Shown here: positions 14,112-61,524 of the stretch, piece after piece
How the letters are laid out: every line of letters begins with the position of its first letter
Position numbering within the stretch: position 1 is the first letter of the stretch
From: an uncultured bacterium
Lineage (GTDB): Bacteria > Joyebacterota > Joyebacteria > Joyebacterales > Joyebacteraceae
Direction of reading: 5' to 3'
Assembly: GCA_964516845.1 (NCBI GenBank)
Contig: CAZEXP010000001.1
Coordinates: forward strand, 124,665 to 188,664
Length of the DNA: 64,000 nucleotides
Made by a program: the position numbers and the translations under genes
Notes under the pieces: model-generated
Told to the model about the DNA's origin: nothing
What the model saw: only the letters and a program-made list of their open reading frames with translations
Database searches by the model: none

Positions 14112-14120
14112 AGACTTGTT

Positions 14121-14245: not shown

Positions 14246-14276
14246 GAGCGGGGCCACCGACGCCTCGTTCCCGTGC

Positions 14277-14304: not shown

Positions 14305-14339
14305 GGCGGGCGGGAGTGCATCTGGTGGCGAGAGGTTCG

Positions 14340-16186: not shown

Positions 16187-16246
16187 GCGACGCAGCGATT
16201 CCGACACGACGGAACGGACACGGGGTTCCAAACGGAGCGAGACATC

Positions 16247-17536: not shown

Positions 17537-18000
17537 GCAAGGTGTACGAAGGACACATCACGGGAGAGGGACGGTCGTTCGGGATCGTGGTCTCGCGCTT
17601 CAACGAATTCATCTCACTCAAGCTGCTCGAAGGGGCGATGGACTGTCTCAGGCGCCACGGCGTTGACGACTCCGACATCACGATCGTCTGGGTCCCGGGC
17701 GCCTTTGATGTGCCGCTCCTGGCCAAGAGAATGGGTGACTCCGGTTCGCATGATGCGGTACTATGCCTCGGTGCGGTCATCCGTGGCGGGACGCCGCACT
17801 TCGACTATGTGGCGGCGGAAGTCGCGAAGGGTGTTGCACATGCGGGGATGGAGACCGGCGTTCCGACGGTCTTCGGTGTCCTCACGGCCGACAGTATCGA
17901 GCAGGCGATCGAACGCGCGGGCACCAAGGCCGGAAACCGGGGGTGGGATGCCGCCATGGCCGCCATGGAGCTCGCCGACCTCTACGCAAGGATGGAGTAG
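17533..18000 (+). CDS. ribH: 6,7-dimethyl-8-ribityllumazine synthase
   Basis: [12 protein letters not shown]...[10 protein letters not shown]...GTPHFDYV. Confidence 0.9.
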
Positions 18001-18001
18001 C

Positions 18002-18466
18002 TTGCCGCAAGACAGGAAGGGCGGGACCGGCACACGGCGGGAGGGCAGGGAGCTGGCGCTCAAGCTGCTCTATCGCGAGGAGGTGACCGGGGTGACGGAG
18101 GGTCCGATTCCGGAGATTGACGAAGCCCGCGAGGACGCCCTGGTGTTCGCCGAAGAGATCGTCGATGGCGTGCGCGAACATCACGACGAGATCGATCGTC
18201 TGATCGGAGCCGCCAGCGAGCACTGGGATATCCCGCGCATGGGCGCCGTCGACAGGACCGTGCTGCGTATCGGCGCATACGAGCTGCTGTGTGTCCCCGA
18301 CACCCCTGTTGGCGTTGTGATCAACGAAGCCGTCGAGATCGCGAGGAAGTACTCATCGAATGAGGGCGCGCGCTTTGTCAACGGCGTGCTCGACCACGTT
18401 GCGCGCGACGCGCGCGATGCCTCCGGGACGGACAGCCCGGAGGCCGAGGACGTGCAGGCCGGCTGA
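18002..18466 (+). CDS. nusB: Transcription antitermination factor NusB (TTG start)
   Basis: RELALKLLY...RIGAYELL...INEAVEIARKY...RFVNGVLD. TTG at 18002 is preceded by aaggatggag inside the ribH 3' end. Confidence 0.8.
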   Translation: MPQDRKGGTGTRREGRELALKLLYREEVTGVTEGPIPEIDEAREDALVFAEEIVDGVREHHDEIDRLIGAASEHWDIPRMGAVDRTVLRIGAYELLCVPDTPVGVVINEAVEIARKYSSNEGARFVNGVLDHVARDARDASGTDSPEAEDVQAG

Positions 18467-22467: not shown

Positions 22468-22470
22468 CGG

Positions 22471-23310
22471 ATGGCCGTAGTCGACCGCGACACCGGTCTG
22501 GGGACCACGTACGAGCGCATCGCAGTGGCCTTGATGCTCGAGCGTTTCGCGGCGCGGCACGACGTGTCGCGCGTGCTCGAGGGGCCGGTGGACGGCATCA
22601 CGGGCATCGCCGGACTCAACAGCATTCCGCTCGCGCAGCGGGGAGCGCGGGTCGATCTTCTCCTTGGAGACAGCGGTCAGCGCGAACTCGCAGGGCGGAT
22701 CTGGCACGGTCTGGGGCTCGCGGACCGATCGAGCATCCGGGTGAGCGAGAACGGGATGCTGTCCGTCCCCGAGCGGTCATACGACCTGGTGTGGAACTTC
22801 AATGCGTTGCCGCAGTCGAAGGACCCCGCGCGCCTGGTCGCGGAGATGTGTGACGCCAGCAACCGCTACGTGATGATCTTCGTCTCGAACACGTGGAACT
22901 ACGGATTCCCGGTGCACCGTCTCCATCACCACGCGGCGCATGAGGACTGGACCCACGGCGACATCGCGTCGATGAACGTGCCCAAGATCGAACGGATGCT
23001 CCGGGACCGTGGATTCGCATCGCGAGAGCGCCTGGTCGTCGACACACCGTGGTGGCCCGACATCGACTCGCCGATCGAGGAGGTCATAGCGACCTTCCTT
23101 CCGTTCCTCAGGCGCCGGGTATCGGGTTCTAAGCGGCTCGAGCACTACACATGGACATGGGATGCCCTCCCGTATTTCGACATGGACAAGCGGAAGCGGC
23201 TGATGGACGAGATCGGAAAGCACTTCGTCATCGAACGTTCGGCTCCGGGCGCGCTGAAGATCCTGTTCGCACATCACCGCGGCGTGCTGGCCGAGAGGAC
23301 GAACGAGTGA
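22471..23310 (+). CDS. Putative class I SAM-dependent methyltransferase-like protein
   Basis: Glycine-rich loop VLEGPVDGITGIAG and acidic segment YDLVWNFNAL. Weak family assignment. Confidence 0.5.
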   Translation: MAVVDRDTGLGTTYERIAVALMLERFAARHDVSRVLEGPVDGITGIAGLNSIPLAQRGARVDLLLGDSGQRELAGRIWHGLGLADRSSIRVSENGMLSVPERSYDLVWNFNALPQSKDPARLVAEMCDASNRYVMIFVSNTWNYGFPVHRLHHHAAHEDWTHGDIASMNVPKIERMLRDRGFASRERLVVDTPWWPDIDSPIEEVIATFLPFLRRRVSGSKRLEHYTWTWDALPYFDMDKRKRLMDEIGKHFVIERSAPGALKILFAHHRGVLAERTNE

Positions 23311-45758: not shown

Positions 45759-46871
45759 ATGCGGATCGCGTATCTCTCCATCGGGGGACACATTCACACC
45801 GAGAGGTGGCTGAGACACTTCGTCAACGCGGGACACGACGTCCACCTGATGACGGTCCAGCCCGCGCCGATCGACGGTGTCACCGTTCACGACATCCGGA
45901 CCGGTATTCCGATCAAACCGCTCCACTATGCCGTCGCGCTCGCCAGGGTCAAACGGATCCTGCGAACGATCAAGCCCGATCTGCTCCACACGCACTTCCT
46001 TACCGGATACGGGTACTGGGGAGCCTTCTCGGGCTTCCATCCGTTCATCATGACCGTCTGGGGCGACGATGTGTACGTCACACCGCACGAGACGAAGCTC
46101 AAGGGCTCGCTGGCGAGAGCCGTGCTCGGTCGCGCCGATCTCATCACGGGGGATTCCGAGGACATCCTGACTCACGTCGTGCGGATGGGCGCCGACCCGG
46201 ATATCTGCCGCGTGGTTCAGTGGGGCGTCGATCTCGACCGCTTCCGGCCCGACGCGGACGGCGGGGTCAGGAGGATGCTGGGCATCCCCGAGGACGCGCC
46301 CGTGGTGATCAGTATCAGGAGCTTCACGCAGGCCTACTACAACATCGACACCATCGTTCGCACTGCTCCCGGTGTTCTCGAGAAGCGCCCCGACACGCAC
46401 TACATCATCGCGGGGAACGAGGGAGACGACTCGGAGCTCCGCGCGCTCGCAGATTCTCTCGGCCTCGATGATCGCATCCACTTCGTAGGACGCATCCCGC
46501 ACGAGGAGCTTCCCGGATACCTGGCGACATCCGACGTGTTCCTGACGGTTCCATCGGTCGATGCCACACCGGTCTCTCTGCTCGAGGCCATGGCGTGCGG
46601 CGTGGCGGTGATCATCTCCAACCTCGAGTCCGCCATGGAGTGGGTGACCGACGGCGAGAACGGTCTCGTCGTCAGGCCCGCCGAACGGCGGGAGCTCGAA
46701 GACGCGATTCTGAAGCTCATCGGCGACCCCGCGGCCCGCGAGCGCTTCGCCGCCATCGGCGTCCGGAAGGTGCGCGAGGGCGCCGACCACGCCCGGCACA
46801 TGGACCGGATGGAGCGGCTCTGCGAGGAACTCATCGCCGGGGGAAAGCCGCGAGCCGGAGGAACATCGTGA
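45759..46871 (+). CDS. Glycosyltransferase family 4 (GT-B)
   Basis: C-terminal GT4 signature (VSLLEAMACGVAVIISNLESAMEWVTDGENGL). GTG 45756 or ATG 45759 are both possible starts. Confidence 0.8.
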   Translation: MRIAYLSIGGHIHTERWLRHFVNAGHDVHLMTVQPAPIDGVTVHDIRTGIPIKPLHYAVALARVKRILRTIKPDLLHTHFLTGYGYWGAFSGFHPFIMTVWGDDVYVTPHETKLKGSLARAVLGRADLITGDSEDILTHVVRMGADPDICRVVQWGVDLDRFRPDADGGVRRMLGIPEDAPVVISIRSFTQAYYNIDTIVRTAPGVLEKRPDTHYIIAGNEGDDSELRALADSLGLDDRIHFVGRIPHEELPGYLATSDVFLTVPSVDATPVSLLEAMACGVAVIISNLESAMEWVTDGENGLVVRPAERRELEDAILKLIGDPAARERFAAIGVRKVREGADHARHMDRMERLCEELIAGGKPRAGGTS

Positions 46872-47818
46872 CGACCGTCAGCGTGGTCATTCCCACGTTT
46901 GGCAAGCGTCCGGTCCTCGAACGCACGCTGGAGTCCCTGCGTGTCCAGACGTACCCGACCGAGCTGACAGAGATCGTCGTGGTTGACGACCACTCGGACG
47001 ACGATACGTCGGAGTACCTCCGGAGCCTCTCGCTTCCGCAGCGCCTTGTCGCGATCCGGCACGATGAGAATCTCGGGCGCGCGGCGGCGCGCAACACGGG
47101 CGTCCGCTCGGCCACGGGAGAGCTGATCGTGTTCGTGGATGACGACATGCTCTGCGAGCCCGATCTCATCGAACAGCACGTGGTCTTCCACCAGGATCAC
47201 CCACGGTCTGTCGCTATCGGCGACGCGGTGCAGGCCCCCGAACTCGGCCACTCGACGGCGCTTTCGTACCTCGATGAGATGGGCGTCCACAAACACGAGT
47301 CCGGCTCGCGGGTGCCGGCGCGGTACTTCGTCACGAACAACAGCTCCGTCGAACGCCAATCCATACTCGACGTCGGTCTCTTCGACGAGAGCTTCCGCAA
47401 CTACGGATTCGAGGATACGGAGCTGGCTTTCCGGCTCGAGGACAACGCGGGTCTCTCGACCTGGTACTGCGGGGAGGCGCGCGCCCTCCACGTGCATCCG
47501 CAGTCGTTCGACGACATCCTCGACAAGAGGATCGAGAACGCGCCGCCGCTGCGACACCTCCTCGCGAAGCACCCGGATCGGGCGGGGGAGATGATGGTGG
47601 ACGTCCTGCTGCCCGTTGCCGCCGGTGACTCGGCCGCGCTCAGGGTTCGGAAGCTCCTGGTGGCCGTCGCCACGAACCGGCTCTTCTACCGGACGGTCCG
47701 CGCCGTTGCCAGGACCATCTGGCTTCGTGGACTCTCGCTCAAGGTGATGACCTACCTGATCGCCTGCCAGTACCGCGCGGGGCTCGCGCGGCCCCCACAT
47801 ACTCAGGAACGCCCCTGA
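46868..47818 (+). CDS. Glycosyltransferase family 2
   Basis: GTG 46868 with RBS ggaggaa in GTGA overlap. VSVVIPTFGKRPVLERTLESL...VVDDHSDDDT...VFVDDDM. Confidence 0.75.
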   Translation: MTTVSVVIPTFGKRPVLERTLESLRVQTYPTELTEIVVVDDHSDDDTSEYLRSLSLPQRLVAIRHDENLGRAAARNTGVRSATGELIVFVDDDMLCEPDLIEQHVVFHQDHPRSVAIGDAVQAPELGHSTALSYLDEMGVHKHESGSRVPARYFVTNNSSVERQSILDVGLFDESFRNYGFEDTELAFRLEDNAGLSTWYCGEARALHVHPQSFDDILDKRIENAPPLRHLLAKHPDRAGEMMVDVLLPVAAGDSAALRVRKLLVAVATNRLFYRTVRAVARTIWLRGLSLKVMTYLIACQYRAGLARPPHTQERP

Positions 47819-48055
47819 AAGCGGCCCCTTCGCGGCGTTTCAACACGTGCGCGACGGTTGGGGCGCGCGATCGACGATTGTAACAACCCCGGTGGCACAC
47901 TTCCTGCTTCCTACAGGGAACTGCACAGCAGATGACACGCATACGTTCCCTGCAGTGCGCGTGAGCAGTCACCAGGTCGTGGGCTGATCCCCAATACCCA
48001 GGTCATGAGTCGTACGCCACCTGTTGCACGCCTCAGCGGGGAACGCTTTTTCTCA

Positions 48056-48091
48056 GCCGCCCCCGGCTCTCTACGAGAGCCGGGGGCGGCC
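48056..48091 (+). terminator. 16-bp perfect GC hairpin (GCCGCCCCCGGCTCTC-tacg-GAGAGCCGGGGGCGGC), putative terminator of the glycan operon
   Basis: Read in sequence. Followed by cTTTCC and then directly by the BMC promoter. Confidence 0.45.
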
Positions 48092-48098
48092 CTTTCCA

Positions 48099-48128
48099 TT
48101 GACAGTCGTCACAAGCCTCTGATAGACT
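48099..48128 (+). promoter_or_regulatory. Sigma70-type promoter TTGACA-N18-(TGa)TAGACT upstream of the BMC operon
   Basis: Consensus -35, extended -10 TG and a TAGACT -10. The same cTGATAGACTGC motif recurs at 59317. Confidence 0.45.
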
Positions 48129-48205
48129 GCCCGGGTTCGCGGCAGGTGCCCATGCCGGTGGTGTTTACGCATACCCCGGGGGGGCGATTCCGGCGCTGTG
48201 GAGGC

Positions 48206-48880
48206 ATGTTCGTGAGCGACGTCACACGGATCGCGGATGAGGTGTTGAGGCGGCTTCAGCGGGAGGCGGGCAACCCGCCTCGCGCGCAGGAGCGTCTCGG
48301 GGAAGCGGGAGTCTCGATCCCCGTCGCAGTCAGCGCCCGTCACGCCCACGTCTCGCGGACCGTACTCGATCGTCTCTACGGGGAGGGCTACGCGCTCTCG
48401 AAGAAGAGCGACCTCGGACAGCCCGGGCAGTTCTCAGCCGAGGAGACGGTCACGGTCGTCGGACGCTCCCTGCGCGCCATCGAGGGCGTCCGCATCCTGG
48501 GTCCCGTGAGAACGTACACGCAGGTCGAGATGTCGCGTGCGGACGCCGTCCGTCTGGGCATCGACCCGCCGATCCGCCGCTCCGGTGATCTCGCGGGGAG
48601 TGCGCCGTTGACGCTGGTCGGCCCGCACGGCGCCGTCACCCTCAAGGAGGGTGGTATCCGCGCGACGCGCCATCTCCACATGACCCCGCGCGACGCGGAG
48701 GTTCATCGCGTAGCCGGCGGCGAGCTGGTCCGCGTCCGGTTCAGCGGCCCCGCGGCGCTCGTCCTCGAGAACGTGATGGTCAACATTTCCGAGGACGGGG
48801 CTCTCGAGCTTCATCTTGACACGGACAATGCGGGCGCGGCGGACGTGCGCGGCCCGATGATGGTGAGCATTCTGAAGTAA
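48206..48880 (+). CDS. pduL: Phosphate propanoyl/acyltransferase PduL-type (PTAC) with N-terminal amphipathic extension
   Basis: Two PduL repeats with VSARHAHVS and [11 protein letters not shown] histidine motifs. Start ATG 48206 or GTG 48212; the upstream part of the track ORF contains the terminator and promoter. Confidence 0.8.
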
Positions 48881-48995
48881 CGAAAGGCGTCACCACCCGC
48901 GCGGGTGGAGCGTCCCAGAGACGAGTGGGTCAGGGACGCCGGCAGCGAGACGCAAACGAGAGGCCCGCAACCGGGCCGGACGAGGGGGTGCGCAA

Positions 48996-49265
48996 TTGCC
49001 GGGTACGGCACTTGGAATGGTCGAGACCCGAGGTGTGATCGGTCTCATTGAGGCAGCCGACGCGATGGTGAAGACCGCCAACGTGACCCTCACGCGCTAT
49101 GAGCGGACAGGTGGCGGGTACGTCGCCATCTTCGTTCGGGGTGACGTGGGCGCTGTGAAGGCGGCGGTCGCCGCCGGAGTCGCTGCCGCGACCAAGGTCG
49201 GGGAACTGGTGTCACAGCACATCATCCCGGCCCCGCACGAATCGCTCGAGGAGATTCTGCTGTAG
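48996..49265 (+). CDS. BMC-H shell protein (PduA/EutM/CcmK-type)
   Basis: [28 protein letters not shown]...[12 protein letters not shown] is the canonical Pfam BMC domain. TTG start with RBS gaggggg. Confidence 0.85.
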
Positions 49266-49360
49266 TCTGACGGGAAGAACACAACGGCACTGGAAACGTG
49301 TGTCGCCATGGGTCCGCAACGGAGCCCGGGGCGACCGAACGCGAGACGCGGGAGGAGAAC

Positions 49361-49651
49361 ATGGGCGAGGCCCTCGGAATGATCGAGACCAGAGGTTTCG
49401 TCGGGATGGTCGAAGCATCCGACGCCATGGTCAAGGCTGCCAAGGTCAAGCTGGTTGGATACGAGAAGGTCGGAGGCGGCTACGTGACCGCCATGGTGCG
49501 CGGTGATGTGGCCGCGGTGCGCGCTGCGGTCGACGCGGGAACCGCGGCGGCCAGCAAGGTCGGGGAACTCATCTCCACGCACGTCATCCCCAGTCCGCAC
49601 ACGAGCCTTGAAGACGTCCTGCCGATCGGCAAGACCGCGAAGTCGAAGTAG
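49361..49651 (+). CDS. BMC-H shell protein, second paralog
   Basis: ATG 49361 with RBS gggaggag. [31 protein letters not shown]...[12 protein letters not shown]. Confidence 0.85.
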
Positions 49652-49652
49652 C

Positions 49653-49943
49653 ATGAACATCGGCCGCGTGGTCGGGACGGTTGTCTCGACACAGAAGGAC
49701 GAGAAGCTGGTCGGTACGAAGCTTCAGATCGTCAAGCAGCTGGGGCTCGACTGCGGCGAGACCGGTTCGTTCGTTGTCGCGATCGACGCCGTGGGCGCAG
49801 GACAGGGCGAGGTGGTCCTGTACGCAAGCGGCAGCTCGGCGCGGCAGACGCCGATCACCAAGGACCGGCCGGCTGACGCCGTGATCATGGCCATCGTGGA
49901 CTCGATCGAGGTCGACGGCGCCACCACGTACGAGAAGAAGTAG
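49653..49943 (+). CDS. BMC-P vertex protein (EutN/PduN/CcmL family), copy 1
   Basis: MNIGRVVGTVVSTQKDEKLVGTKLQIV...AVGAGQGEVVL. 96 aa. Confidence 0.85.
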   Translation: MNIGRVVGTVVSTQKDEKLVGTKLQIVKQLGLDCGETGSFVVAIDAVGAGQGEVVLYASGSSARQTPITKDRPADAVIMAIVDSIEVDGATTYEKK

Positions 49944-49993
49944 CGCGCGACGCATCGGGAGCCACCGACGCCTCCTCGGGGAGTTCTTCGCTC

Positions 49994-51418
49994 ATGCCCA
50001 TCGACAGGATAGGGATCGAGTCAATCGTCGAACGCGTCCTCGGAGAGATTGAGGGGGAACGCGCCGCGAGCCCTCCGCCGAAGGCCTTCGACGGGCGTGG
50101 GATACTGCCCGACATCGATGCGGCGACGCTGGCGGCGCTGAGCGCGTTCCGCGAGTTCTCGGAGATACCGCTCGAGGAGCGGCGCGACTTCATCTCCGCA
50201 ATGAGGGCGACGATCCTCGAGCACATCGACGAGCTCTCACAGCTCGCCGTCCAGGAGACCGGGCTCGGGCGCGTGGAGGACAAGGTACGGAAGAACCGGC
50301 TTGCGGCCCGCGCGACCCCCGGGGTCGAGGATCTGAGGGCACACGCCTTCTCCGGCGATCACGGTCTGACGCTCGTCGAGCGGGCGCCCTACGGCGTCAT
50401 CGGCTCGATCACTCCGTCCACCAATCCGTCCGAGACCATTATCAACAACGCCATCAGCATGGTGGCGGCCGGCAACACGGTCGTCTTCAACCCGCACCCG
50501 AGCGCGCGGGTGGTCTCGCTGACCACGATCGACCTGCTCAATCGAGCCATCGCGCAGGCGGGCGGCCCCAGGGCTCTCCTTTTCGCGCCGGTCGATCCAT
50601 CGGTGACATCGGCGCAGGAGCTCATGGCGCATCCGAGTATCCGACTGCTCGTCGTGACGGGCGGACCGGGCGTGGTGAGGGCCGCCATGCAGTCGGGAAA
50701 GCGCGTCGTCGCCGCCGGGCCGGGCAACCCGCCCGTCGTCGTCGATTCGACAGCCGACATCGAGAAGGCCGGCCGCGACATCGTCGCGGGGGCGACTCTC
50801 GACAACAACATCGTCTGCATCGCCGAGAAGGAGATCATCGTCGAGCGCGACGTGGCGGCGCTTCTCAAGCAGTCGCTCGCCGGGGCGGGAGGCGTCGAGA
50901 TCAAGGGACAGTCGCTCGCCCGGCTCATGGACGTTCTCATCGCGGAGGAACACGGTCCGCGACAGCCCGCAACGATGAATCGTGCGTTCATCGGCAAAAA
51001 CATCGAGATCATCCTCGACGCCGCCGGACTCTCATGCCCGCAGGGCGCCCGGATGGCGTTCTTCGAGGCGGACGAGGATCATCCGCTGGTCTGGACGGAA
51101 CAGATGCTCCCGGTGCTTCCCCTCGTCACCGCGCCGAGCGCGAAGGCGGCCATCGAGATGGCAAGGCGCTATGAGCGCGATTGTCGCCACACGGCCGTCA
51201 TGCACTCGAAGAACATCGAGCACATGTCGCTCATGGCGCGGGTGATGGACTGCTCCATCTTCGTGAAGAACGGGCCCTCGTACGCCGGGCTGGGGTTTGG
51301 CGGCGAGGGATTCACGACGTTCACGATCGCGAGCCCGACGGGCGAGGGGCTGACGTCGGCACGCACCTTTACGCGCGAGCGCAGGTGCACACTTGTCGAC
51401 TACTTCAGAATCGTCTAG
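49994..51418 (+). CDS. CoA-acylating aldehyde dehydrogenase (PduP/EutE-like) with N-terminal extension
   Basis: ALDH fold with the catalytic Cys region LDNNIVCIAEKE. N-terminal 40 aa precede the ALDH core. Confidence 0.85.
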   Translation: MPIDRIGIESIVERVLGEIEGERAASPPPKAFDGRGILPDIDAATLAALSAFREFSEIPLEERRDFISAMRATILEHIDELSQLAVQETGLGRVEDKVRKNRLAARATPGVEDLRAHAFSGDHGLTLVERAPYGVIGSITPSTNPSETIINNAISMVAAGNTVVFNPHPSARVVSLTTIDLLNRAIAQAGGPRALLFAPVDPSVTSAQELMAHPSIRLLVVTGGPGVVRAAMQSGKRVVAAGPGNPPVVVDSTADIEKAGRDIVAGATLDNNIVCIAEKEIIVERDVAALLKQSLAGAGGVEIKGQSLARLMDVLIAEEHGPRQPATMNRAFIGKNIEIILDAAGLSCPQGARMAFFEADEDHPLVWTEQMLPVLPLVTAPSAKAAIEMARRYERDCRHTAVMHSKNIEHMSLMARVMDCSIFVKNGPSYAGLGFGGEGFTTFTIASPTGEGLTSARTFTRERRCTLVDYFRIV

Positions 51419-51431
51419 GGGACATGCGACC

Positions 51432-52760
51432 GTGAGCGCGAACCTCAGTGATGCGATACGGGCGGCAGGTGTCGTGGGAGCCGGAGGCGGCGGTTTCCCG
51501 ACCCACGTCAAGGCCGAGGGCAAGGCCGATACGCTCCTCGCCAACGGAGCCGAGTGCGAGCCGCTCCTGAAGGCCGACAGCGCGATGATGAGGGCGGAGC
51601 CCGCGCGCGTGCTCGCCGGTCTTACGCTCATGCGGGACGCCGTCGGCGCCGAGCGCGCCGTCCTCGCCGTGAAACGCAAGAACCTCGACGCTCTTTCCGG
51701 ACTCCGGGAGGCGGCCGAGGCGGCGGAGGGCGTCGAACTCCTCGTCCTGGACAATGTCTATCCCGCGGGCGACGAGTTTCTGCTGGTCTTCGAGGCGACG
51801 GGACGCGTTGTCCCCGAGGGCGGGCTCCCGCTCGATGTCGGTGTCGTCGTGAACAACGTCACCACGCTGGCGCAGGTCGCTGACGCTCGCGAGGGACGCC
51901 CCGTCACGCACCGGTTCGTCACGGTGCAGGGCGAGGTGAACAGTCCCGTGACCTTGTGGGCGCCCGTCGGAACGCAGCTCTCGGCACTGCTCGATGCTGC
52001 CGGGGGACCGAAACTCGACGAGTTCTCGGTCATCGCCGGCGGTCCGATGATGGGACGCCTGGCCGACCTGACCGAACCAACCGACAAGATGCTGGCCGGG
52101 ATCATCGTGCTCCGAAACTCGCATCATCTCATCACGGTGAGGAAGGAGACCGCCGGTCACGCCCTGAAGATCGCTCGGGCCGCGTGCTGCCAGTGCATGG
52201 CGTGCACGGAGCTGTGCCCGAGGGCGCTTCTCGGCCACGACCTCCAGCCGCATCGAACCGTGCGCGCGATCCAGTACTCGATGGAGGCCTCCGAGCACGC
52301 GCACGTCACATCGGCGTATCTCTGTTGCGAATGCGGCATGTGCGAGCTCTTCGCGTGCCCGCTCGAGATCAGGCCGAGGAGGATCCTCTCGGAGCTCAAG
52401 GCCGAGCTCAAGCGGCGGGGAGTCGAGAACCCGCATCGGAGACGGGAACTCGACGCCGACGCGGTCCGGCAGTACCGACAGATCCCTTCGGCGCGGCTGG
52501 TCCAGCGTCTCGGCCTGTCTCAGTATGACGGTCCCGCCGAGGCCATCGGCGACGCGCTCCAGGCGCGGCGAGTGCGCCTGCTGATGCGCCAGCACATCGG
52601 CGCGCCGGCGGTGCCCGTCGTCGAACAGGGAGCGAGCGTGCTCGCCGGCGATGTCGTGGGTGAGATTCCTGCAGGAGCCCTTGGCGCACGCGTACACGCC
52701 AGTATCAGCGGCGAGGTGACGCGAGTCAGCACAACGGAAGTGGTCGTCGAGCGTCGATAG
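51432..52760 (+). CDS. PduS/RnfC-family Fe-S flavoprotein (Complex1_51K-like NAD(H)/FMN module + two 4Fe-4S motifs + C-terminal barrel-sandwich domain)
   Basis: GAGGGGFPTHVK...ANGAECEPLLKAD, CCQCMACTELCP and CCECGMCELFACP. GTG 51432 is 9 nt after RBS aggggac. Confidence 0.75.
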   Translation: MSANLSDAIRAAGVVGAGGGGFPTHVKAEGKADTLLANGAECEPLLKADSAMMRAEPARVLAGLTLMRDAVGAERAVLAVKRKNLDALSGLREAAEAAEGVELLVLDNVYPAGDEFLLVFEATGRVVPEGGLPLDVGVVVNNVTTLAQVADAREGRPVTHRFVTVQGEVNSPVTLWAPVGTQLSALLDAAGGPKLDEFSVIAGGPMMGRLADLTEPTDKMLAGIIVLRNSHHLITVRKETAGHALKIARAACCQCMACTELCPRALLGHDLQPHRTVRAIQYSMEASEHAHVTSAYLCCECGMCELFACPLEIRPRRILSELKAELKRRGVENPHRRRELDADAVRQYRQIPSARLVQRLGLSQYDGPAEAIGDALQARRVRLLMRQHIGAPAVPVVEQGASVLAGDVVGEIPAGALGARVHASISGEVTRVSTTEVVVERR

Positions 52761-52832
52761 CGCGCACCGCACGCGTCGACCTCGTAGAGGACACGACGTC
52801 ATGGATGACGCGACGTCGGAGAGGATGAACGA

Positions 52833-53423
52833 TTGGCGAAGAAGCGTTCTCAAATGGACGCCCCGAAGCGCGGACGACTCGAGGCGATCGCGATCATAGA
52901 GACCATCAGCATCGCCGTCGGGATCCAGATCACCGACGCGATGGCCAAGATGGCCAGCGTCGAGATCCTCGAATCGACTCCGATCTGTCCCGGCAAGTAC
53001 ATGGTGCTGGTGGCAGGCGGCGTCTCCGATGTGGAGTCCTCGCTGAAGCGTGGCATCGAGATCGGCGGGGACGTCATCGCCGACACCCTGTCGATACCTC
53101 ACGTCCATCCGGACATCTTCCCGGCCATCCTCGGCGCCGTCGACGTGGGCGAGCTGGGGGCGCTCGGCGTTGTCGAGACGTTCACGGTCGCCTCCTCGAT
53201 CCTCGCGGCTGATGCCGCGGCGAAGGCCGCACGCGTTCGTATCCTCGAGATTCGTGTCGCGAAGGGACTCGGCGGCAAGGGCTTCTTCACGATGACGGGC
53301 GAGGTGCACGAGGTGGAGGCCGCTATGGAGGCGGCTCTTCAGGTCACGAAGGAATCCGGGACGCTCGTGCGCAGCGTCGTCATCCCACGACCGCACCCGA
53401 GTCTAGCGGCGACGGTCCTGTAG
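52833..53423 (+). CDS. Tandem-domain BMC shell protein (BMC-T)
   Basis: 196 aa with two successive BMC-fold halves (AIAIIETISIAVGI... and LGALGVVETFTVASSILAADAAAKAARV...). TTG start with RBS ggagagga. Confidence 0.75.
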   Translation: MAKKRSQMDAPKRGRLEAIAIIETISIAVGIQITDAMAKMASVEILESTPICPGKYMVLVAGGVSDVESSLKRGIEIGGDVIADTLSIPHVHPDIFPAILGAVDVGELGALGVVETFTVASSILAADAAAKAARVRILEIRVAKGLGGKGFFTMTGEVHEVEAAMEAALQVTKESGTLVRSVVIPRPHPSLAATVL

Positions 53424-53455
53424 CGCGTCGCCACGCCTGCGGCGAAGGAGGAGCG

Positions 53456-53749
53456 GTGCATTTCGGCAGGGTCATCGGCTCGGTCTGGGCGACTCAGAAG
53501 GTCCCGACGCTCAAGGGCGCGCGGATGCTGATCGTCCAGCCTCTGACGCATACGCTCGAGGAGAAAGGGCAACCGCTCGTAGCCGTCGACACCGTCGAGG
53601 CTGCGCCCGGACAGATCATCTACTTCGTGATGTCGCGCGAGGCGTGCAAGGCGATGGAGGAGCGCTTCAACCCGGTCGACGCGGCGATCGTCGGCATCGT
53701 CGATGAGATATCACTGGCCGATGCAGCGATCGACGGGGGGGACGTCTGA
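53456..53749 (+). CDS. BMC-P vertex protein (EutN/CcmL family), copy 2
   Basis: GTG start with RBS ggaggag. (M)HFGRVIGSVWATQKVPTLKGARMLIV. Confidence 0.8.
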   Translation: MHFGRVIGSVWATQKVPTLKGARMLIVQPLTHTLEEKGQPLVAVDTVEAAPGQIIYFVMSREACKAMEERFNPVDAAIVGIVDEISLADAAIDGGDV

Positions 53750-53750
53750 C

Positions 53751-54023
53751 ATGTTTCTCGCACGCGTGATAGGGGAACTCGTCTCGACGATCAAGCATGA
53801 GTCGCTCCACGCCCAAACGCTGCTGATCATCGACCGGATCGATCTCGAGGACCATCAGACCGGCGCCACCCTGATAGCAGTCGATTCGGTGTCCGCGGGC
53901 GTAGGGGACACCGTGCTCGTCGTGGACGAGGGCGGCTCCGCGGCCATCGTCACCGGGCTTGCCGACCCGCCGATCAGAACGGTCATCGTCGGCATCGTCG
54001 ATCACTTCGACGTGGAGGTGTGA
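53751..54023 (+). CDS. BMC-P vertex protein (EutN/CcmL family), copy 3
   Basis: MFLARVIGELVSTIKHESLHAQTLLII...AVDSVSAGVGDTVLV. Confidence 0.8.
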   Translation: MFLARVIGELVSTIKHESLHAQTLLIIDRIDLEDHQTGATLIAVDSVSAGVGDTVLVVDEGGSAAIVTGLADPPIRTVIVGIVDHFDVEV

Positions 54024-54027
54024 CGTC

Positions 54028-54828
54028 GTGCTGAGCGAGTTCGAAGCGCGCCGCGATATCGTCGAGATCGGCCGTCGGCTCTGGCAACGCGGATACGTTG
54101 CCTCGAACGACGGCAACATCAGCGCGCGCCTCGACGGCGAACGGATACTCGTGACGCCCTCGGGCCTTTCGAAAGGCTTTCTCTCCACGACCGATCTCGT
54201 CGTTGTCACGCCCGAAGGCAGGAAGCTCTCGGGAGAGCGCGAGCCCACCTCGGAACTCCCGCTTCACCTCTCGGTCTACTCCCGTCGCGCCGACGTCGCC
54301 GGTATCGTGCACGCCCATCCACCGGTCGCGACCGGGTACGCCGTTGCTCGTGTCCCACTTGCGCAGTGCATTCTTCCCGAGGTCGTGCTGACGCTCGGGT
54401 CGGTTCCGACCGCGGACTACGCGACGCCTTCTACCTCCGCGGTTGCCGAGAGCATCGCGCGCTACGTCGACGACTACAGCGCCATACTGCTGGCGAACCA
54501 CGGGGCGCTCGCGCTCGGCAAGACTCTCTACGAAGCGTATTTCCGGATGGAGACGATCGAACACTTCGCTCAGATCGCCCTCACCGCGCGTCAGCTGGGA
54601 GGAGCATCGCCGCTGACACCGGGTGAGATCGAGGACCTCGCGGTGATCCGGGAGAAACTCGGCGTGCGAGTGCCGGAGGACAGCTGTCTGAGCTGTGGCG
54701 CGTGCACCGGCTCCGACGGCGCCGATGCCGGAACAGCGCCGTCCCGGACCGCGTCCGGCCAGGCCAGCCTCGACGAATCGCTGGTTCAGGAGGTCATGGC
54801 GGAGATCGCCCGACGTCGTTCCGGCTGA
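54028..54828 (+). CDS. Class II aldolase/adducin-family enzyme (fuculose/rhamnulose-phosphate aldolase-like) with C-terminal extension
   Basis: GTG 54028 with RBS ggagg 9 nt upstream. GNISAR, VHAHPP and LLANHGAL are class II aldolase metal and active-site motifs. About 50 extra C-terminal residues. Confidence 0.8.
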   Translation: MLSEFEARRDIVEIGRRLWQRGYVASNDGNISARLDGERILVTPSGLSKGFLSTTDLVVVTPEGRKLSGEREPTSELPLHLSVYSRRADVAGIVHAHPPVATGYAVARVPLAQCILPEVVLTLGSVPTADYATPSTSAVAESIARYVDDYSAILLANHGALALGKTLYEAYFRMETIEHFAQIALTARQLGGASPLTPGEIEDLAVIREKLGVRVPEDSCLSCGACTGSDGADAGTAPSRTASGQASLDESLVQEVMAEIARRRSG

Positions 54829-54866
54829 AAAAGGACCCGCTCCGAGCGGGCCCGGGAGGATGACGA

Positions 54867-55763
54867 ATGACAAAGCGCGGATGTCTCTGGGGATGGTTGG
54901 CGGGAGCGGTGACGCTGCTCCTGATATTCCTCGTCACGATGATCATGATAGAAGCACTGCTCGGAGGAGACGGTGTGCGTCTGCCCTCGTACGGCGCGCA
55001 CGTCGGCCTCGTCCGGATCGAAGGCGTCATCAGCGACTCGAGGAGCGTCATCGACGACCTGCGATTCTTTGAGAAGGCCGGCGGGATCAAGGCTCTGGTG
55101 ATCCGAATCGACAGTCCGGGTGGTGGGGTGGCGGCAACGCAGGAGATCGTCGCCGAGATCGACCGCATCCGAGAGAATGGGATGCCGGTGGTGGCCTCGA
55201 TGGGATCTGTCGCGGCATCAGGCGGATACTACATCGCGTGCTCGGCCGACAGCATCTTCGCCAACGCAGGGACGCTGACTGGCAGCATCGGTGTCATCAT
55301 GAGCTTCACGAATCTTGAGAGCCTGTTCGCCAAACTGGGTATGTCTTTTGACGTTGTCAAGAGCGGTGAGTACAAGGACATCGGCTCCTGGAGCCGCGAG
55401 ATGACCCCGGCGGAACGGGCGCTCCTCCAGGCCACGGTTGACGATATCCACGCGCAGTTCGTCGAGGCGGTCTCCCAGGGACGCGACCTTTCCCTCGAGG
55501 AGGTTGCATCCTTCTCCGATGGCCGCATCTTCTCGGGCCGTGAAGCTCTGTCCCGGAAGCTCGTCGACGGGCTCGGAACGCTCGACGACGCTGTGACGGC
55601 AGCCGGCAGAATGGGGGGTATCGGGGGAGAACCGCGTATCCTGGAGCCGGTCAAGCGCGAACGGTTGACGTTTTTTGACCTGCTGACGGGGAGCCTGGAG
55701 CGCATCCTCCCTGAGACGGCGGTCCCGAGCGGCGCCCTCTACCTGTACAGACCCTCCAAGTGA
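54867..55763 (+). CDS. sppA: Signal peptide peptidase SppA (36K type)
   Basis: N-terminal TM helix. LVIRIDSPGGGV and catalytic GSVAASGGYYIAC / KSGEYKD motifs. Confidence 0.85.
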   Translation: MTKRGCLWGWLAGAVTLLLIFLVTMIMIEALLGGDGVRLPSYGAHVGLVRIEGVISDSRSVIDDLRFFEKAGGIKALVIRIDSPGGGVAATQEIVAEIDRIRENGMPVVASMGSVAASGGYYIACSADSIFANAGTLTGSIGVIMSFTNLESLFAKLGMSFDVVKSGEYKDIGSWSREMTPAERALLQATVDDIHAQFVEAVSQGRDLSLEEVASFSDGRIFSGREALSRKLVDGLGTLDDAVTAAGRMGGIGGEPRILEPVKRERLTFFDLLTGSLERILPETAVPSGALYLYRPSK

Positions 55764-55778
55764 CCTTCAGAAAAGCAT

Positions 55779-55807
55779 TTGACAGCCTCGGGCCGGCTTG
55801 CTAGGAT
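55779..55807 (+). promoter_or_regulatory. Sigma70-type promoter TTGACA-N17-TAGGAT
   Basis: Hexamers read in sequence. The next start codon is about 340 nt downstream. Confidence 0.45.
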
Positions 55808-55814
55808 GTGTCTT

Positions 55815-56150
55815 GAGGTTGTCGGCCTCGCGCCGGCAGTGCAGTCTCCGCAGCGACGCTCGAACAGCCGCCGTACCCGGTAAGGTGCGGGCGGCGACCG
55901 ACTTCGGCCGATGCATCTGCTGGTCGGCACCAGGAGAGGCGATCGCGCGGAAAGACGAGGCAAGATTCTGCAATCCGACAGCTCTCCAGGAGCGAAAGCC
56001 GGGGAAACCTGAGCGGCCTCCCGCATGCAGGCGAGGAGGCTCCGTACGGAGAGCAACCGATGACGCGAAGCACCGCGACGATGCACGACGGCGCAGCACA
56101 CAGCGTTGGAGCGCGATCGCGTGCGGGCTCCACGACGGAGGTTGTGGGTT
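55815..56150 (+). other. Long (~335 nt) GC-rich, structured 5' leader or unassigned ncRNA upstream of the HU-like gene
   Basis: No credible CDS. ORFs here on both strands are Arg/Ala-rich artefacts. Several local hairpins. Confidence 0.25.
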
Positions 56151-56507
56151 ATGACGAAAGCGGACCTTGTCGATCGCGTTGCCAGCACAACCGGACTGAC
56201 GAAGCGTGACGTCGCCGTTGTCGTTGAGGCGCTCCTTGACTCGATCAAAGACGCGCTCGCCGATCACCGGCACATCGAGATTCGGGAGTTCGGGACGTTC
56301 AAAGTGAAGCAACGCAAAGCCAGCATGAAGTACAACCCGAGAGACCGCTCGCAGAAGGTAGTCGTACCTGCGAAGATGGTCCCGGTGTTCAAGCCGAGCA
56401 AGTTCCTGAAGGAGAAGGTTAACTGGCCTGATGAGCGGGGGATCAATCCCCCCGAAGGGGGAGCAGCATCCCCGGAACCGGCCGTCGATAGCAATCCGGC
56501 GGCATGA
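56151..56507 (+). CDS. HU/IHF-family DNA-binding protein with ~25-aa C-terminal tail
   Basis: MTKADLVDRVASTTGLTKRDVAVVVEALLDSI...IREFGTFKVKQRKA...NPRD is the HU/IHF fold. ATG 56151. Confidence 0.85.
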   Translation: MTKADLVDRVASTTGLTKRDVAVVVEALLDSIKDALADHRHIEIREFGTFKVKQRKASMKYNPRDRSQKVVVPAKMVPVFKPSKFLKEKVNWPDERGINPPEGGAASPEPAVDSNPAA

Positions 56508-59351: not shown

Positions 59352-60725
59352 ATGATGCGCAGTTCCGAACGCAATACCGCACCACCGAGACCACGCCGGA
59401 TCCCGGCGGCACGGAGGGCTCACACTCTGACGGCCGTTCTGGCCGTAATCCTGATCGCGATCGCGGTCACCCCGTCTTTCGGTTTCGTCCCATCGACGGT
59501 CCGTGAGATCGACGCGGCGGCCGAGGGATACCTCCACTACAGCCTGGGTCGTCTGATGGAGGTGGAGGGACTTCTCGCCGAAGCGCTGGTCCAGTACCGG
59601 CGTGCCCACTCCCTCAACCCGGGCGACTGCGAGCTTCCGACGGCGACGGCCCGGGTGCTCCTCGAGATGGGCAGACTTGAGGAGGCTCTCGAGCGAGCGC
59701 GCGTGGCGCGCAACGGGTGCCCGGACGCGGAGGAACCGCTCGCGGTCGAGGCCGACGCGCTGCTTCTCCTCGAGCGTCCCGAAGAGGCCGAGGCAATCCT
59801 CACGCGCGCATTCGAGGAGGCCGGCGTTGCAATCGACCACGCCGCGGGTCTCTCCACACATCTCGTCGTCCTGCTCGGGCGCTCTCTCGAAGCGCAGGGC
59901 AGGATGGAGGAAGCTCGCACGCTCTATGCCGGCGTGGCCGTGGCGGACACGCTCGAACCGGAGATGGCTTTCCTCTACGCGCGCGCGTCCCTGCTGCTCG
60001 GCGATACGGATACGGCCCTGCGCGAGCTCTGGCGCTCCCACACGCTCCAGCCGTCCAACAGACAGGCGGCGGCGATGCTCGCTCGTCTGCTCGACTCCCT
60101 CGACCGGCACGAGGAGGCTCTGCCGGTCCTTGAGAGACTCGTTGAGCGTGGCGACGCAACGACGGCCGAGTACTTCGCTCTGGCCCGCGCCCACGCGCTC
60201 AGCGGCGACCTCGACCGCTCACAGGCGGTGCTCGATGACGCGACGCGGATATGGGGAGAGACGCCTCCGCTTCTCAGGGCTCGCGCGTCCATCTACTTCG
60301 CGGCGGGACAAAGCGACAGCGCCGTGGCGGTCCACCGAAGACTCATCGAACAGGACCCCGGCGCGGTGACATCGCTGAACTTCCTCGCGTATGAACTCGC
60401 CGACAAGGGAGAGAGCCTCGAAGAGGCGCTCGCTCTGGCCACCCGCGCTCGTGAGCTGTCACCCGAGAGCCCGCTCGTGCGCGACACTCTCGGATGGACC
60501 TATTTCAGACTTGCTCGATACGACGAGGCCGTTCAGGAACTTGAGCTGGCCGTCTCGTTGGGCGCTGACAGCGCGGTCGTGCTCGAACATCTTGGCGACG
60601 CGTACGATGCCCTCGGTCGAACGGACGACGCCAGAGATGCGTGGACGCGTGCCCTGGAGCTCGACCCGGAGCGGAACACGACCCTGCAGAGGCTCACCGG
60701 CGGAGCGCCACATGGCGAACGATAG
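59352..60725 (+). CDS. Secreted/anchored TPR-repeat protein
   Basis: N-terminal hydrophobic segment, then at least 8 TPR-like helical pairs. Confidence 0.75.
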   Translation: MMRSSERNTAPPRPRRIPAARRAHTLTAVLAVILIAIAVTPSFGFVPSTVREIDAAAEGYLHYSLGRLMEVEGLLAEALVQYRRAHSLNPGDCELPTATARVLLEMGRLEEALERARVARNGCPDAEEPLAVEADALLLLERPEEAEAILTRAFEEAGVAIDHAAGLSTHLVVLLGRSLEAQGRMEEARTLYAGVAVADTLEPEMAFLYARASLLLGDTDTALRELWRSHTLQPSNRQAAAMLARLLDSLDRHEEALPVLERLVERGDATTAEYFALARAHALSGDLDRSQAVLDDATRIWGETPPLLRARASIYFAAGQSDSAVAVHRRLIEQDPGAVTSLNFLAYELADKGESLEEALALATRARELSPESPLVRDTLGWTYFRLARYDEAVQELELAVSLGADSAVVLEHLGDAYDALGRTDDARDAWTRALELDPERNTTLQRLTGGAPHGER

Positions 60726-61524
60726 ACCGATGCGCATCTCGATCCGTCTTGCCGTCACGCTCGTCGCGCTCGCACTCGTGGCCGGGTGCGGGGGAATGCG
60801 CGTGCCGACGGAATCATTGACCGCGTCGGACCTCGACCGGATCGCGGCCGAGGTCGACGCGACGGCCCGGGATCTCACCGCGCTCCGCGGCACGGGCAGC
60901 GGCCTGCTCTCATCGGACGATCACAGGACTCCGTTCGCCTTCGCCGTCGTCTACGATCGCGCGGGCTGGCTTCGAGCCGACATTCGTCCCTCGTCGCCGG
61001 CCGCCCCGAGCGGCTTCACGGCCCAGATCCTCGTCGAACAGGAGTGTGCCGACATGCTCTTCCCTTCGAGTCTCGTCATCGTCACAGGGTGTCTCGACAC
61101 CGTTCCGTTCGCGGACCCCGCGCTCCTGCTGTTCGGCGCTGTCAGGGGTGAAGACATTCTCGGGCTCGAAGATCCCGTCGCCGCCGAAGATCACGAATCG
61201 ATGCGGCTCACGGGGCGGCGCGGCGAGACGCGGATCGACCTGACGCTCGACCGCGATACACACCGGCTCACGAGCATTGAGGTCCGCAGCGATGATGACG
61301 ACTGGCTCTCCATCGAGTACGATGGTCACGGGTGGAAGGATTCGCTGCCGCTTCCGCGGACCACGATCATCAGGTTTGGTCGGAAGGGGCGCACGCAGGC
61401 CAGACTCCGGTTTGAGTTCGACCGATTGCGGGCCATCGACCCCGTCGACCGAACCGCACTCGATCTTGTCGTTCCACCCGGCACAACGGTTTCCGGTTGG
61501 GAAGACCTCGCTCTCTGGAGGTAG
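60712..61524 (+). CDS. Lipoprotein, LolB/DUF4292-like
   Basis: ATG 60712 overlaps the TPR gene end. Lipobox LVAGC. Confidence 0.55.
   Translation: MANDRPMRISIRLAVTLVALALVAGCGGMRVPTESLTASDLDRIAAEVDATARDLTALRGTGSGLLSSDDHRTPFAFAVVYDRAGWLRADIRPSSPAAPSGFTAQILVEQECADMLFPSSLVIVTGCLDTVPFADPALLLFGAVRGEDILGLEDPVAAEDHESMRLTGRRGETRIDLTLDRDTHRLTSIEVRSDDDDWLSIEYDGHGWKDSLPLPRTTIIRFGRKGRTQARLRFEFDRLRAIDPVDRTALDLVVPPGTTVSGWEDLALWR

Follow-up and report, generated by a model that had tools for sequence, protein, structure and literature searches.

The gene at positions 51432-52760 (forward strand) of the window, by which we mean the whole 64-kb stretch of DNA analysed, is genuine and unbroken, and its product belongs to the PduS/MNdh family, a group of Fe-S flavoproteins. 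We consider it, with a probability of about 0.78, to be a metabolosome NADH dehydrogenase (MNdh; first described as PduS) that serves the export of electrons across a BMC shell. It is located in an operon of 10 genes (48206-54828), between an aldehyde dehydrogenase (ALDH) and a tandem BMC-T shell protein, and a class II aldolase is the last gene. What is new here is a further lineage, uncultivated and Eisenbacteria-like, for PduS/MNdh; the role of the family in aldolase-type compartments is already published. The features discussed below are:

48056..48128, + strand: operon boundary, a hairpin followed by a promoter-like sequence (consensus matches only)
48206..48880, + strand: PduL-type phosphotransacylase (PTAC) with an N-terminal encapsulation-peptide-like (EP-like) helix; PF06130, E=1e-61; start inferred
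48996..49265, + strand: BMC-H shell protein 1; PF00936, E=4e-29
49361..49651, + strand: BMC-H shell protein 2; PF00936, E=3e-30; ATG start at MGEALGMIE
49653..49943, + strand: BMC-P pentamer protein 1 of 3; PF03319, E=6e-28
49994..51418, + strand: CoA-acylating aldehyde dehydrogenase (EutE/PduP type); PRK15398, PF00171
51432..52760, + strand: MNdh/PduS-family Fe-S flavoprotein, in the order Complex1_51K, SLBB, two [4Fe-4S], C-terminal RnfC_N barrel
51468..51500, + strand: Gly-rich FMN/NADH-site motif G13-V-V-G-A-G-G-G-G-F-P23
52185..52361, + strand: two ferredoxin-type Cys motifs, C252-x2-C255-x2-C258-x3-C262-P and C298-x2-C301-x2-C304-x4-C309-P
52833..53423, + strand: PduT-type tandem BMC-T (BMC-T^SE); PF00936 twice; predicted Fe-S pore protein
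53456..53749, + strand: BMC-P pentamer protein 2 of 3; PF03319, E=2e-27
53751..54023, + strand: BMC-P pentamer protein 3 of 3; PF03319, E=2e-23
54025..54828, + strand: class II aldolase, candidate signature enzyme; PF00596, E=5e-48

The open reading frame starts with GTG, 13 nt past the stop codon of the ALDH gene, and its frame is intact over 442 residues. Its GC3 is 0.80, which is usual among the genes of this window of 65% GC, and an NCBI-derived collection contains the identical 442-residue protein. All four Pfam domains exceed their gathering cut-offs. In the numbering of the longer, 455-residue ORF that starts with TTG at 51393 (subtract 13 for the 442-residue numbering) these are Complex1_51K (PF01512, residues 22-163, E=7e-43), SLBB (PF10531, 176-222, E=2e-9), the 4Fe-4S dicluster domain Fer4_17 (PF13534, 264-326, E=1e-11) and the RnfC_N barrel (PF13375, 384-451, E=4e-14), the last corresponding to about 371-442 of 442.

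The FMN/NADH motif quoted in the initial annotation, GAGGGGFPTHVK, is found in the protein. In an alignment of 34 homologs G13, G16, A17, G18, G19, F22 and P23 of the Gly-rich motif are invariant, and the motif aligns with the equivalent one of the RnfC chains 7zc6_C and 9eri_C. The eight cluster cysteines (C252, C255, C258, C262, C298, C301, C304 and C309) are likewise invariant in all 34, and the same eight are also kept in Salmonella PduS, a Listeria PduS-like protein and a Bacteroides RsxC. An AlphaFold2 model of the protein has a pLDDT of 92.2 and a pTM of 0.90; its top PDB folds are the RnfC chains 8rbq_C, 9eri_C and 7zc6_C (E about 1e-25 to 1e-21), with NuoF-type flavoproteins ranking after them. 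Pfam and the motifs bear out the earlier description of a Complex1_51K-like module, two Cys clusters and a C-terminal RnfC-type barrel.

The order of these parts is what sets the protein apart from RnfC. In a phmmer search against the PDB, query residues 6-324 match residues 124-430 of RnfC, while query residues 380-434 match residues 32-85 (7zc6_C and 9eri_C). Compared with RnfC, the protein is circularly permuted, with its barrel at the C-terminus. PduS is recognised by this permutation with respect to RnfC/NuoF; the family now goes by the name MNdh, for metabolosome NADH dehydrogenase (Sutter et al. 2024, PMC11626177). We compared the positions of motif and barrel across 85 homologs. Those from BMC-type loci that have both features in the ORF, Salmonella PduS included, carry the Gly motif near the N-terminus and the barrel at the C-terminus; in one homolog (L009) the position of the motif is offset through an over-extended call of the ORF start. 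Rnf-type homologs with both features located show the reverse order, with the barrel at about 30-150 and the Gly motif at about 135-205.

The initial annotation had proposed a phylogeny against PduS and RnfC. We built a neighbour-joining tree from the core that the sequences have in common. The window protein falls inside the clade of Salmonella PduS, while 27 RnfC/RsxC sequences lie outside it; it thus groups with PduS and not with the RnfC of membrane complexes. The bootstrap support for the split between MNdh and RnfC is moderate (69/100), while the Eisenbacteria-like subclade is recovered in 100/100 replicates. Identity to RsxC is about 30% and covers only residues 22-326.

Further, the gene has a conserved place among its relatives. 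Related loci come mostly from Candidatus Eisenbacteria MAGs, which also hold the closest named relatives of the window protein (61-65% identity). The order PTAC, BMC-H, BMC-H, BMC-P, ALDH, MNdh, BMC-T, BMC-P, BMC-P, aldolase is the same in the 12 complete related loci, and the remaining parts of 6 truncated ones keep it too. Whether orthologous aldolase-type loci contain the gene had also been put forward as a check; each of the related loci recovered has an MNdh homolog. The BMC-T genes adjoining MNdh homologs all encode CPGK (54/54). The set also has BMC-linked homologs from Clostridia, which are 34-46% identical to the window protein.

The neighbours of the gene are those the initial annotation described: a PRK15398-type ALDH upstream, a tandem BMC-T downstream and the class II aldolase at 54025-54828. 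At the upstream end of the operon there is a GC-rich, terminator-like hairpin of 16 bp at 48056-48090 and, 3' of it, a sigma-70-like promoter, TTGACA-18-TAGACT, at 48099-48128, both of them consensus matches only. Since both elements fall within the mechanical ORF 48005-48880, position 48206 is the probable start of the PTAC gene. PTAC scores 216 bits with NCBIfam PRK15070 (cut-off 209). The ALDH reaches 632 bits with PRK15398 (cut-off 403), carries an EP-like helix at its N-terminus (IESIVERVLGEIE) and is the NADH producer of the operon. The BMC-T gene starts 72 nt 3' of the MNdh gene. Its pore motif CPGK (in ICPGKY, with Cys52) is encoded at 52986-52997, and the closest PDB matches of the protein are 3nwg, 3pac and 3n79 (PduT), with CPGK aligned.

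The aldolase has a conserved C-terminal tail with a CxxCGxC motif, then a linker and then an EP-like helix (LDESLVQEVMAEIARRR). The CxxCGxC motif could be an additional, previously undescribed lumenal metal or redox site. No NCBIfam equivalog matches the aldolase at its cut-off; the best scores, all below cut-off, are 136 against 250 for 3-oxo-tetronate-4-P decarboxylase and 112 against 264 for FucA. An Rfam search of 47500-56200 (E<=1) for a riboswitch or regulatory RNA that might reveal the substrate gave zero matches.

We scanned every sizeable ORF of the 64-kb window with Pfam. In these ORFs there is no alcohol dehydrogenase, no cobalamin-dependent enzyme (diol dehydratase or ethanolamine ammonia-lyase), no PduO/EutT adenosyltransferase, no cobalamin biosynthesis gene, no rnfA/B/D/E/G subunit, no PF00871 acetate kinase and neither pfam01791 DERA nor pfam02502 RpiB. 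This confirms, for the scanned window, the earlier remark that the locus has no cobalamin enzyme. An alcohol dehydrogenase, or another EP-bearing recycler of NAD+, could be encoded beyond the window.

Taken together, the features that are diagnostic of MNdh are found here: the permuted order, an adjoining BMC-T with CPGK, an aldehyde dehydrogenase and no alcohol dehydrogenase. MNdh and BMC-T^SE, the latter a BMC-T^S whose pore motif is CP(G/S)K, were defined by Sutter 2024, who found them adjacent in 97% of loci (PMC11626177). For the family a recycling of NADH with passage of electrons across the shell has been proposed and is biochemically supported, in that the cluster of BMC-T^SE is reduced in an NADH-dependent manner, as observed by EPR (Sutter 2024, PMC11626177). 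The sole characterised MNdh/BMC-T^SE complex is that of the GRM1 locus of C. botulinum, for which O2 is the only acceptor shown in vitro (PMC11626177). The suggestion in the initial annotation that the protein recycles NAD(H) or moves electrons across the shell matches this published model, and is the function we predict here.

In the window operon the pathway would then run as follows. The class II aldolase would split a ketose phosphate to yield an aldehyde; among the candidate substrates are deoxy-sugar phosphates, for example those of fuculose and rhamnulose (1-phosphates). The CoA-acylating ALDH would convert the aldehyde to acyl-CoA, reducing NAD+ to NADH, and PduL would make the acyl-phosphate, freeing CoA. 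MNdh would be bound to the BMC-T^SE trimer on the side that faces the lumen, and would oxidise NADH at its FMN. Its two [4Fe-4S] clusters would relay the electrons to a further [4Fe-4S] cluster in the pore of BMC-T^SE, where the three CPGK cysteines would hold it, and a cytosolic acceptor, for which ferredoxin, flavodoxin and O2 are candidates, would take them up. That NADH is oxidised, which way the electrons flow, that the protein lies in the lumen and what the acceptor is are all predicted by homology to the C. botulinum complex. As the operon has no alcohol dehydrogenase, MNdh would be the sole recycler of NAD+ that it encodes.

Several other explanations of the gene should be considered. 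It might encode an RnfC subunit of the membrane-bound Rnf complex (ferredoxin:NAD+ oxidoreductase), with its position in a BMC locus a coincidence. This would agree with the nearest solved structures, which are RnfC chains, with the label "RnfC subunit" that many homologs carry in the JGI annotation, and with the NCBIfam subfamily model TIGR01945 (rnfC), which is passed narrowly, at 250 against a cut-off of 245.95. However, the equivalog models fail (RsxC 228 against 345, rnfC_Methano 96 against 650), the barrel is C-terminal and not N-terminal, the gene and its homologs invariably adjoin a BMC-T with CPGK, and the scanned ORFs of the window include no rnf genes of the kind that flank the Bacteroides rsxC (rnfB-like, rnfD, rnfG and rnfE). 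Together with the tree, the domain order, the neighbours and the failed equivalogs rule out a genuine RnfC, and we give this explanation practically no credence. The protein could also be a PduS in the classical sense, reducing cob(III)/cob(II)alamin for an adenosyltransferase that reactivates an encapsulated B12 enzyme. The reduction of corrins was indeed the first activity ascribed to PduS (work cited in PMC4207490), and the window protein has the same domain order as enterobacterial PduS, that of Salmonella included, and 42-44% identity to it over 92% of its length. But neither the operon nor the other sizeable ORFs of the window gave a Pfam match to a B12 enzyme, an adenosyltransferase or a cobalamin gene, and the operon has a metal-dependent aldolase of class II as its candidate signature enzyme. 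In addition, Sutter 2024 argues that the role of B12 is indirect at best, with little room for a corrin in the fold (PMC11626177). A B12-linked role is very unlikely and was dropped.

An alternative closer to the preferred one keeps the same chain of cofactors but gives it another job, either the import of electrons to NAD+ or another acceptor in the lumen or, as once speculated for SPU and GRM5 loci, the direct reduction of an aldehyde or other substrate. RnfC-type modules are reversible, and Axen 2014 suggested that PduS might make alcohol where an alcohol dehydrogenase is missing (PMC4207490). The conserved Cys motif in the tail of the aldolase also hints at more redox or metal chemistry in the lumen. 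Nevertheless, the only nicotinamide-dependent enzyme of the operon yields NADH, so that a sink is required and not a source. Further, potentials and EPR of the C. botulinum complex favour a flow from NADH to FMN, Fe-S and BMC-T^SE (PMC11626177), and the protein has no substrate-binding domain beyond the RnfC-like fold. We regard such a different job as improbable, at odds of something like one in eight. Finally, Axen 2014 raised the possibility that PduS in loci without B12 enzymes is a relic (PMC4207490), which here would mean a functionless remnant of a PDU-like ancestor. There is very little chance of this, given an intact frame, a model of high confidence, cofactor ligands that are invariant in homologs down to 45% identity, and a position and partner gene kept in every related locus at 61-85% identity.

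Electron export by MNdh remains the preferred reading, but its novelty should not be overestimated. The initial annotation implied that a PduS-like protein outside B12 and glycyl-radical BMCs was unusual; this was overstated, since such genes had already been recorded. They are also present in PVM and ACI satellite loci (Sutter 2024, PMC11626177), and the MNdh/PduS family has been counted in more than 2,000 BMC loci. The pairing with an aldolase/ALDH core was called not well characterised, which holds for experiments only: PduS next to a class II aldolase, an aldehyde dehydrogenase and PTAC was recorded in 2014 as an SPU-like locus (Axen 2014, PMC4207490), and the same set is found in the MIC4 and MUF3 types of 2021 (Sutter 2021, Supplementary Data 2).

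In gene content, as read from the sequence, the operon resembles MIC4 minus acetate kinase, or MIC7 plus aldolase, PTAC and MNdh. In the 2021 catalog Eisenbacteria are found under MIC7 only, described as "AldDh only" (Sutter et al. 2021), and the one Eisenbacteria MIC7 BMC-T in its trees, from RBG_16_71_46, is of the Ts_drab type, without a pore Cys or a PduS partner. Related loci run from a GT2 gene directly to SppA, without an extra gene (no acetate kinase is inserted). It is conceivable, although we rather doubt it, that the 10-gene operon is a BMC subtype outside the 2021 catalog with MNdh/BMC-T^SE as its sole obligatory recycler of NAD+; on this reading it is inherited vertically and keeps one position in the chromosome, flanked by a polysaccharide cluster and sppA. 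If this is true, it would be a compact natural test case for the export of electrons across a protein shell.

Irrespective of its classification the operon is a clean example of a minimal metabolosome (aldolase, aldehyde dehydrogenase, PTAC and shell). It has no alcohol dehydrogenase, and the published idea that MNdh/BMC-T^SE regenerates NAD+ unaided, by sending electrons out through the shell, is therefore testable here without a redundant pathway. The comparison also exposes a recurrent annotation error, in which permuted MNdh proteins that narrowly pass the TIGR01945 rnfC model are named "RnfC".

[quoted passage not shown] Both types include a pfam00871 acetate kinase, which is not found in the 64-kb window, and their reported hosts belong to other phyla (Actinobacteria, Bacteroidetes, Calditrichaeota, KSB1, Firmicutes and Ignavibacteria; Clostridia). 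The SPU-like locus of Latescibacteria, also an uncultivated lineage, has the same aldehyde dehydrogenase, PduL, PduS and class II aldolase (Axen et al. 2014, PMC4207490). An acetate kinase and an RpiB-like isomerase are further genes of that locus, and no counterpart of either was found in the window; with no DERA or RpiB there, an assignment to the SPU type is ruled out.

In the MNdh/BMC-T^SE module of C. botulinum the four domains and their permuted order are as in the window protein, and so are the FMN/NADH motif and the eight Cys for two [4Fe-4S] clusters; the locus likewise has an adjoining PduT-type BMC-T with CPGK and an aldehyde dehydrogenase. The differences are in the host, here Eisenbacteria-like and of 65% GC, and in the enzyme, here a class II aldolase instead of a glycyl-radical choline lyase. 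In having no alcohol dehydrogenase, the window locus is like 361 loci catalogued in Sutter 2024 (PMC11626177). PduS of Salmonella enterica shares the architecture, the x4 spacing between the last two cysteines of the second motif and a pduT-like next gene (pduS-pduT), but its pdu locus also encodes PduO, the alcohol dehydrogenase PduQ and a diol dehydratase that depends on B12, all three of which the window locus lacks. RnfC (7zc6_C, 9eri_C and 8ahx_C) is the best structural match, with the same fold, FMN/NADH site and two [4Fe-4S] clusters. Compared with it, the window protein has a permuted barrel, one more residue in the second Cys motif and no encoded membrane partners; its partner is a shell protein and not RnfB/D/G.

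At 51432-52760 (+) the window has a 442-codon reading frame with a GTG start, which begins 13 nt after the stop of the upstream gene. Its GC3 (0.80) resembles that of other genes in the 65% GC window, and an identical 442-residue protein (P0001) is present in an NCBI-derived protein collection. Four Pfam domains score above their gathering thresholds; the coordinates refer to a 455-residue TTG-start ORF, so 13 should be subtracted to obtain the 442-residue numbering:

22-163, Complex1_51K (E=7e-43)
176-222, SLBB
264-326, Fer4_17
384-451, RnfC_N barrel (E=4e-14)

The initial annotation had described an Fe-S flavoprotein with an NAD(H)/FMN module, two Cys clusters and a C-terminal barrel. The gene is real and was correctly described: both the GAGGGGFPTHVK motif and the two Cys clusters are found in the sequence. 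All eight cysteines (C252, C255, C258, C262, C298, C301, C304 and C309) are invariant across 34 homologs and the PduS and RsxC references, and so is the Gly-rich FMN/NADH motif. The AlphaFold2 model is confident (pLDDT 92.2, pTM 0.90); the solved structures that match it best are RnfC chains, followed by NuoF-type flavoproteins.

What identifies the protein above all is that its RnfC_N barrel lies at the C-terminus. A sequence search of the PDB aligns the RnfC chains 7zc6_C and 9eri_C in two segments whose order is exchanged (query 6-324 to RnfC 124-430, query 380-434 to RnfC 32-85), a circular permutation. We compared 80 loci, taken from one-genome-per-species contigs, and five annotated references: Salmonella pduS, a Listeria pdu/eut homolog, E. 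coli rsxC, Bacteroides rsxC and Terrisporobacter prdC. In homologs from microcompartment (BMC) loci, Salmonella PduS among them, the glycine motif is close to the N-terminus and the barrel is C-terminal wherever the ORF shows both; in homologs that lack BMC neighbours the barrel comes first (about residues 30-150), followed by the glycine motif at about 135-205.

In a neighbour-joining tree built from the shared core, the protein falls within the clade that contains PduS and apart from 27 RnfC/RsxC sequences. The bootstrap support is moderate for the PduS-RnfC split (69/100) and complete for the subclade of related loci, mostly from Candidatus Eisenbacteria MAGs and here called Eisenbacteria-like (100/100). 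Identity to enterobacterial PduS is 42-44% over 92% of the length, and to RsxC about 30% over residues 22-326 only. The permuted, BMC-linked protein narrowly passes the NCBIfam rnfC subfamily model TIGR01945 (250 vs 245.95 bits), and many of the homologs P0008-P0119 bear the JGI name [quoted passage not shown]. This naming of PduS-type proteins is a systematic mis-annotation. The family has been renamed metabolosome NADH dehydrogenase, MNdh (Sutter et al. 2024, PMC11626177). One MNdh homolog (P0088, 47% identity) carries the label Candidatus Odinarchaeota archaeon; Asgard (Hodarchaeales) BMC operons with pairs of MNdh and CPGK BMC-T, acquired from Myxococcota, have been reported (2025 preprint, PMC12747264).

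The gene lies in a compact operon of ten genes, all on the same strand:

48206-48880, PduL-type phosphotransacylase (PTAC)
48996-49265, BMC-H (first)
49361-49651, BMC-H (second)
49653-49943, BMC-P (first)
49994-51418, CoA-acylating aldehyde dehydrogenase (ALDH)
51432-52760 (+), MNdh
52833-53423, tandem BMC-T
53456-53749, BMC-P (second)
53751-54023, BMC-P (third)
54025-54828, class II aldolase

The start of the operon is likely marked at 48056-48128 by two elements:

48056-48090, 16-bp GC-rich hairpin
48099-48128, sigma-70-like promoter, TTGACA-18-TAGACT

Both lie inside the mechanical ORF 48005-48880, and therefore PTAC probably starts at the ATG at 48206, which would give it an N-terminal helix resembling an encapsulation peptide (EP). 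Downstream follow sppA, an HU-family gene and a PilZ gene. Upstream is a long polysaccharide-biosynthesis cluster of about 28 kb (about 19100-47800), containing several GT2, GT4 and GT9 glycosyltransferases, a DegT aminotransferase, a Polysacc_synt_2 dehydratase, a flippase, a radical SAM/SPASM gene, a DUF362 gene and two phosphodiesterase/sulfatase-like genes.

The gene 3' of MNdh encodes a PduT-type tandem BMC-T. Its closest PDB relatives are 3nwg, 3pac and 3n79 (PduT), whose pore motif aligns with ICPGKY, and CPGK is present in 54/54 loci in which an MNdh homolog is followed by a BMC-T. All 12 Eisenbacteria-like loci that span the operon have the same gene order, PTAC-H-H-P-ALDH-MNdh-T-P-P-aldolase, and truncated contigs keep the remaining part of it; orthologous aldolase-type loci thus contain the MNdh gene with no exceptions in the set. 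Further, the operon sits between a GT2 gene (46595-47818 in the window) and sppA (54867-55763) not only here but also in 12 related MAG loci (among L001-L016 and L047), and this shared chromosomal site suggests vertical inheritance in the lineage rather than recent transfer. Aldolase and MNdh also occur together in one Nitrospinota and nine Clostridial loci.

The aldolase tail (about 54690-54828) carries a CxxCGxC motif, CLSCGAC, followed by a variable Ala/Pro/Ser/Gly linker and an EP-like helix. One Nitrospinota locus shares the motif, as does every Eisenbacteria-like locus with a contig long enough to include the aldolase. In Clostridial BMC aldolases this place is taken by a different Cys/His-rich insert. 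The CxxCGxC motif may serve as a metal or redox site; we found no description of it in the BMC literature cited here.

MNdh is found in 2,172 of more than 7,000 BMC loci, always together with AldDh, and in 97% of these it adjoins a BMC-T bearing a CP(G/S)K motif (BMC-T^SE); 361 loci are without any alcohol dehydrogenase (PMC11626177). The C. botulinum MNdh/BMC-T^SE complex contains FMN and Fe-S clusters and oxidises NADH, EPR shows NADH-dependent reduction of its BMC-T^SE cluster, and the measured potentials fit an electron path that starts at FMN, runs via the Fe-S clusters and ends at the cluster in the shell (PMC11626177). For the protein studied here, family membership, permutation, ligands, partner motif, synteny and the gene absences are direct results; its activity, flow direction, location and acceptor we infer by homology. 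The aldolase would release an aldehyde, which ALDH would convert to acyl-CoA and NADH; PduL would recycle CoA, and MNdh/BMC-T^SE would re-oxidise NADH and export electrons to a cytosolic acceptor. [quoted passage not shown] MNdh has no such helix, which would fit a recruitment via the shell protein. The earlier functional proposal, NAD(H) recycling or electron transfer across the shell, is supported and matches the published MNdh model.

Among all sizeable ORFs of the 64-kb window, Pfam scans detected no alcohol dehydrogenase, acetate kinase, DERA, RpiB, adenosyltransferase or Rnf subunits, and no B12-dependent enzyme, as the initial annotation had stated. No Rfam families were found in or around the operon. 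A riboflavin operon (ribD, ribE, ribBA, ribH, then nusB; 14109-18466), a source of FMN precursor 33 kb away, looks like housekeeping. Selenoprotein synthesis is probable in this organism: a gene for the selenocysteine synthase SelA (6206-7645) precedes a 596-residue ORF (7500-9290) that has no Pfam match. Three sizeable ORFs with coding-like GC3, at 60391-61524 (+), 22468-23310 (+) and 4506-5915 (-), have no hit in Pfam under the thresholds applied.

The MNdh feature is explained by published work. Its pairing with an aldolase/ALDH core had been suggested to be new; it is already in the 2014 and 2021 literature. A 2014 paper pointed to PduS homologs in loci that lack B12 enzymes as a puzzle and included an "SPU-like" locus of Latescibacteria with AldDH, PduL, PduS and class II aldolase (PMC4207490), and PVM and ACI have the PduS/PduT-type pair in satellite loci (PMC11626177). 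That the locus is a distinct minimal metabolosome free of alcohol dehydrogenase, with obligatory electron export and an as yet undescribed Cys motif in the tail of its aldolase, we consider rather unlikely; it would be of modest interest if true. In the 2021 catalog (Sutter 2021, Supplementary Data 2) Eisenbacteria appear only under MIC7, described as "AldDh only" and with PduS in 2/6 loci, and the BMC-T of the single Eisenbacteria MIC7 entry found in its trees lacks the pore Cys. The locus is possibly a minor uncatalogued subtype. MIC4 (15 loci) and MUF3 (8 loci) share a core of AldDh, PTAC, pfam00596 aldolase and acetate kinase, and in both a PduS homolog adjoins a pore-Cys PduT-type BMC-T; MIC4 has the BMC-P triplet too (2021 catalog). 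The window locus matches MIC4 except that it has no acetate kinase and belongs to another host lineage.
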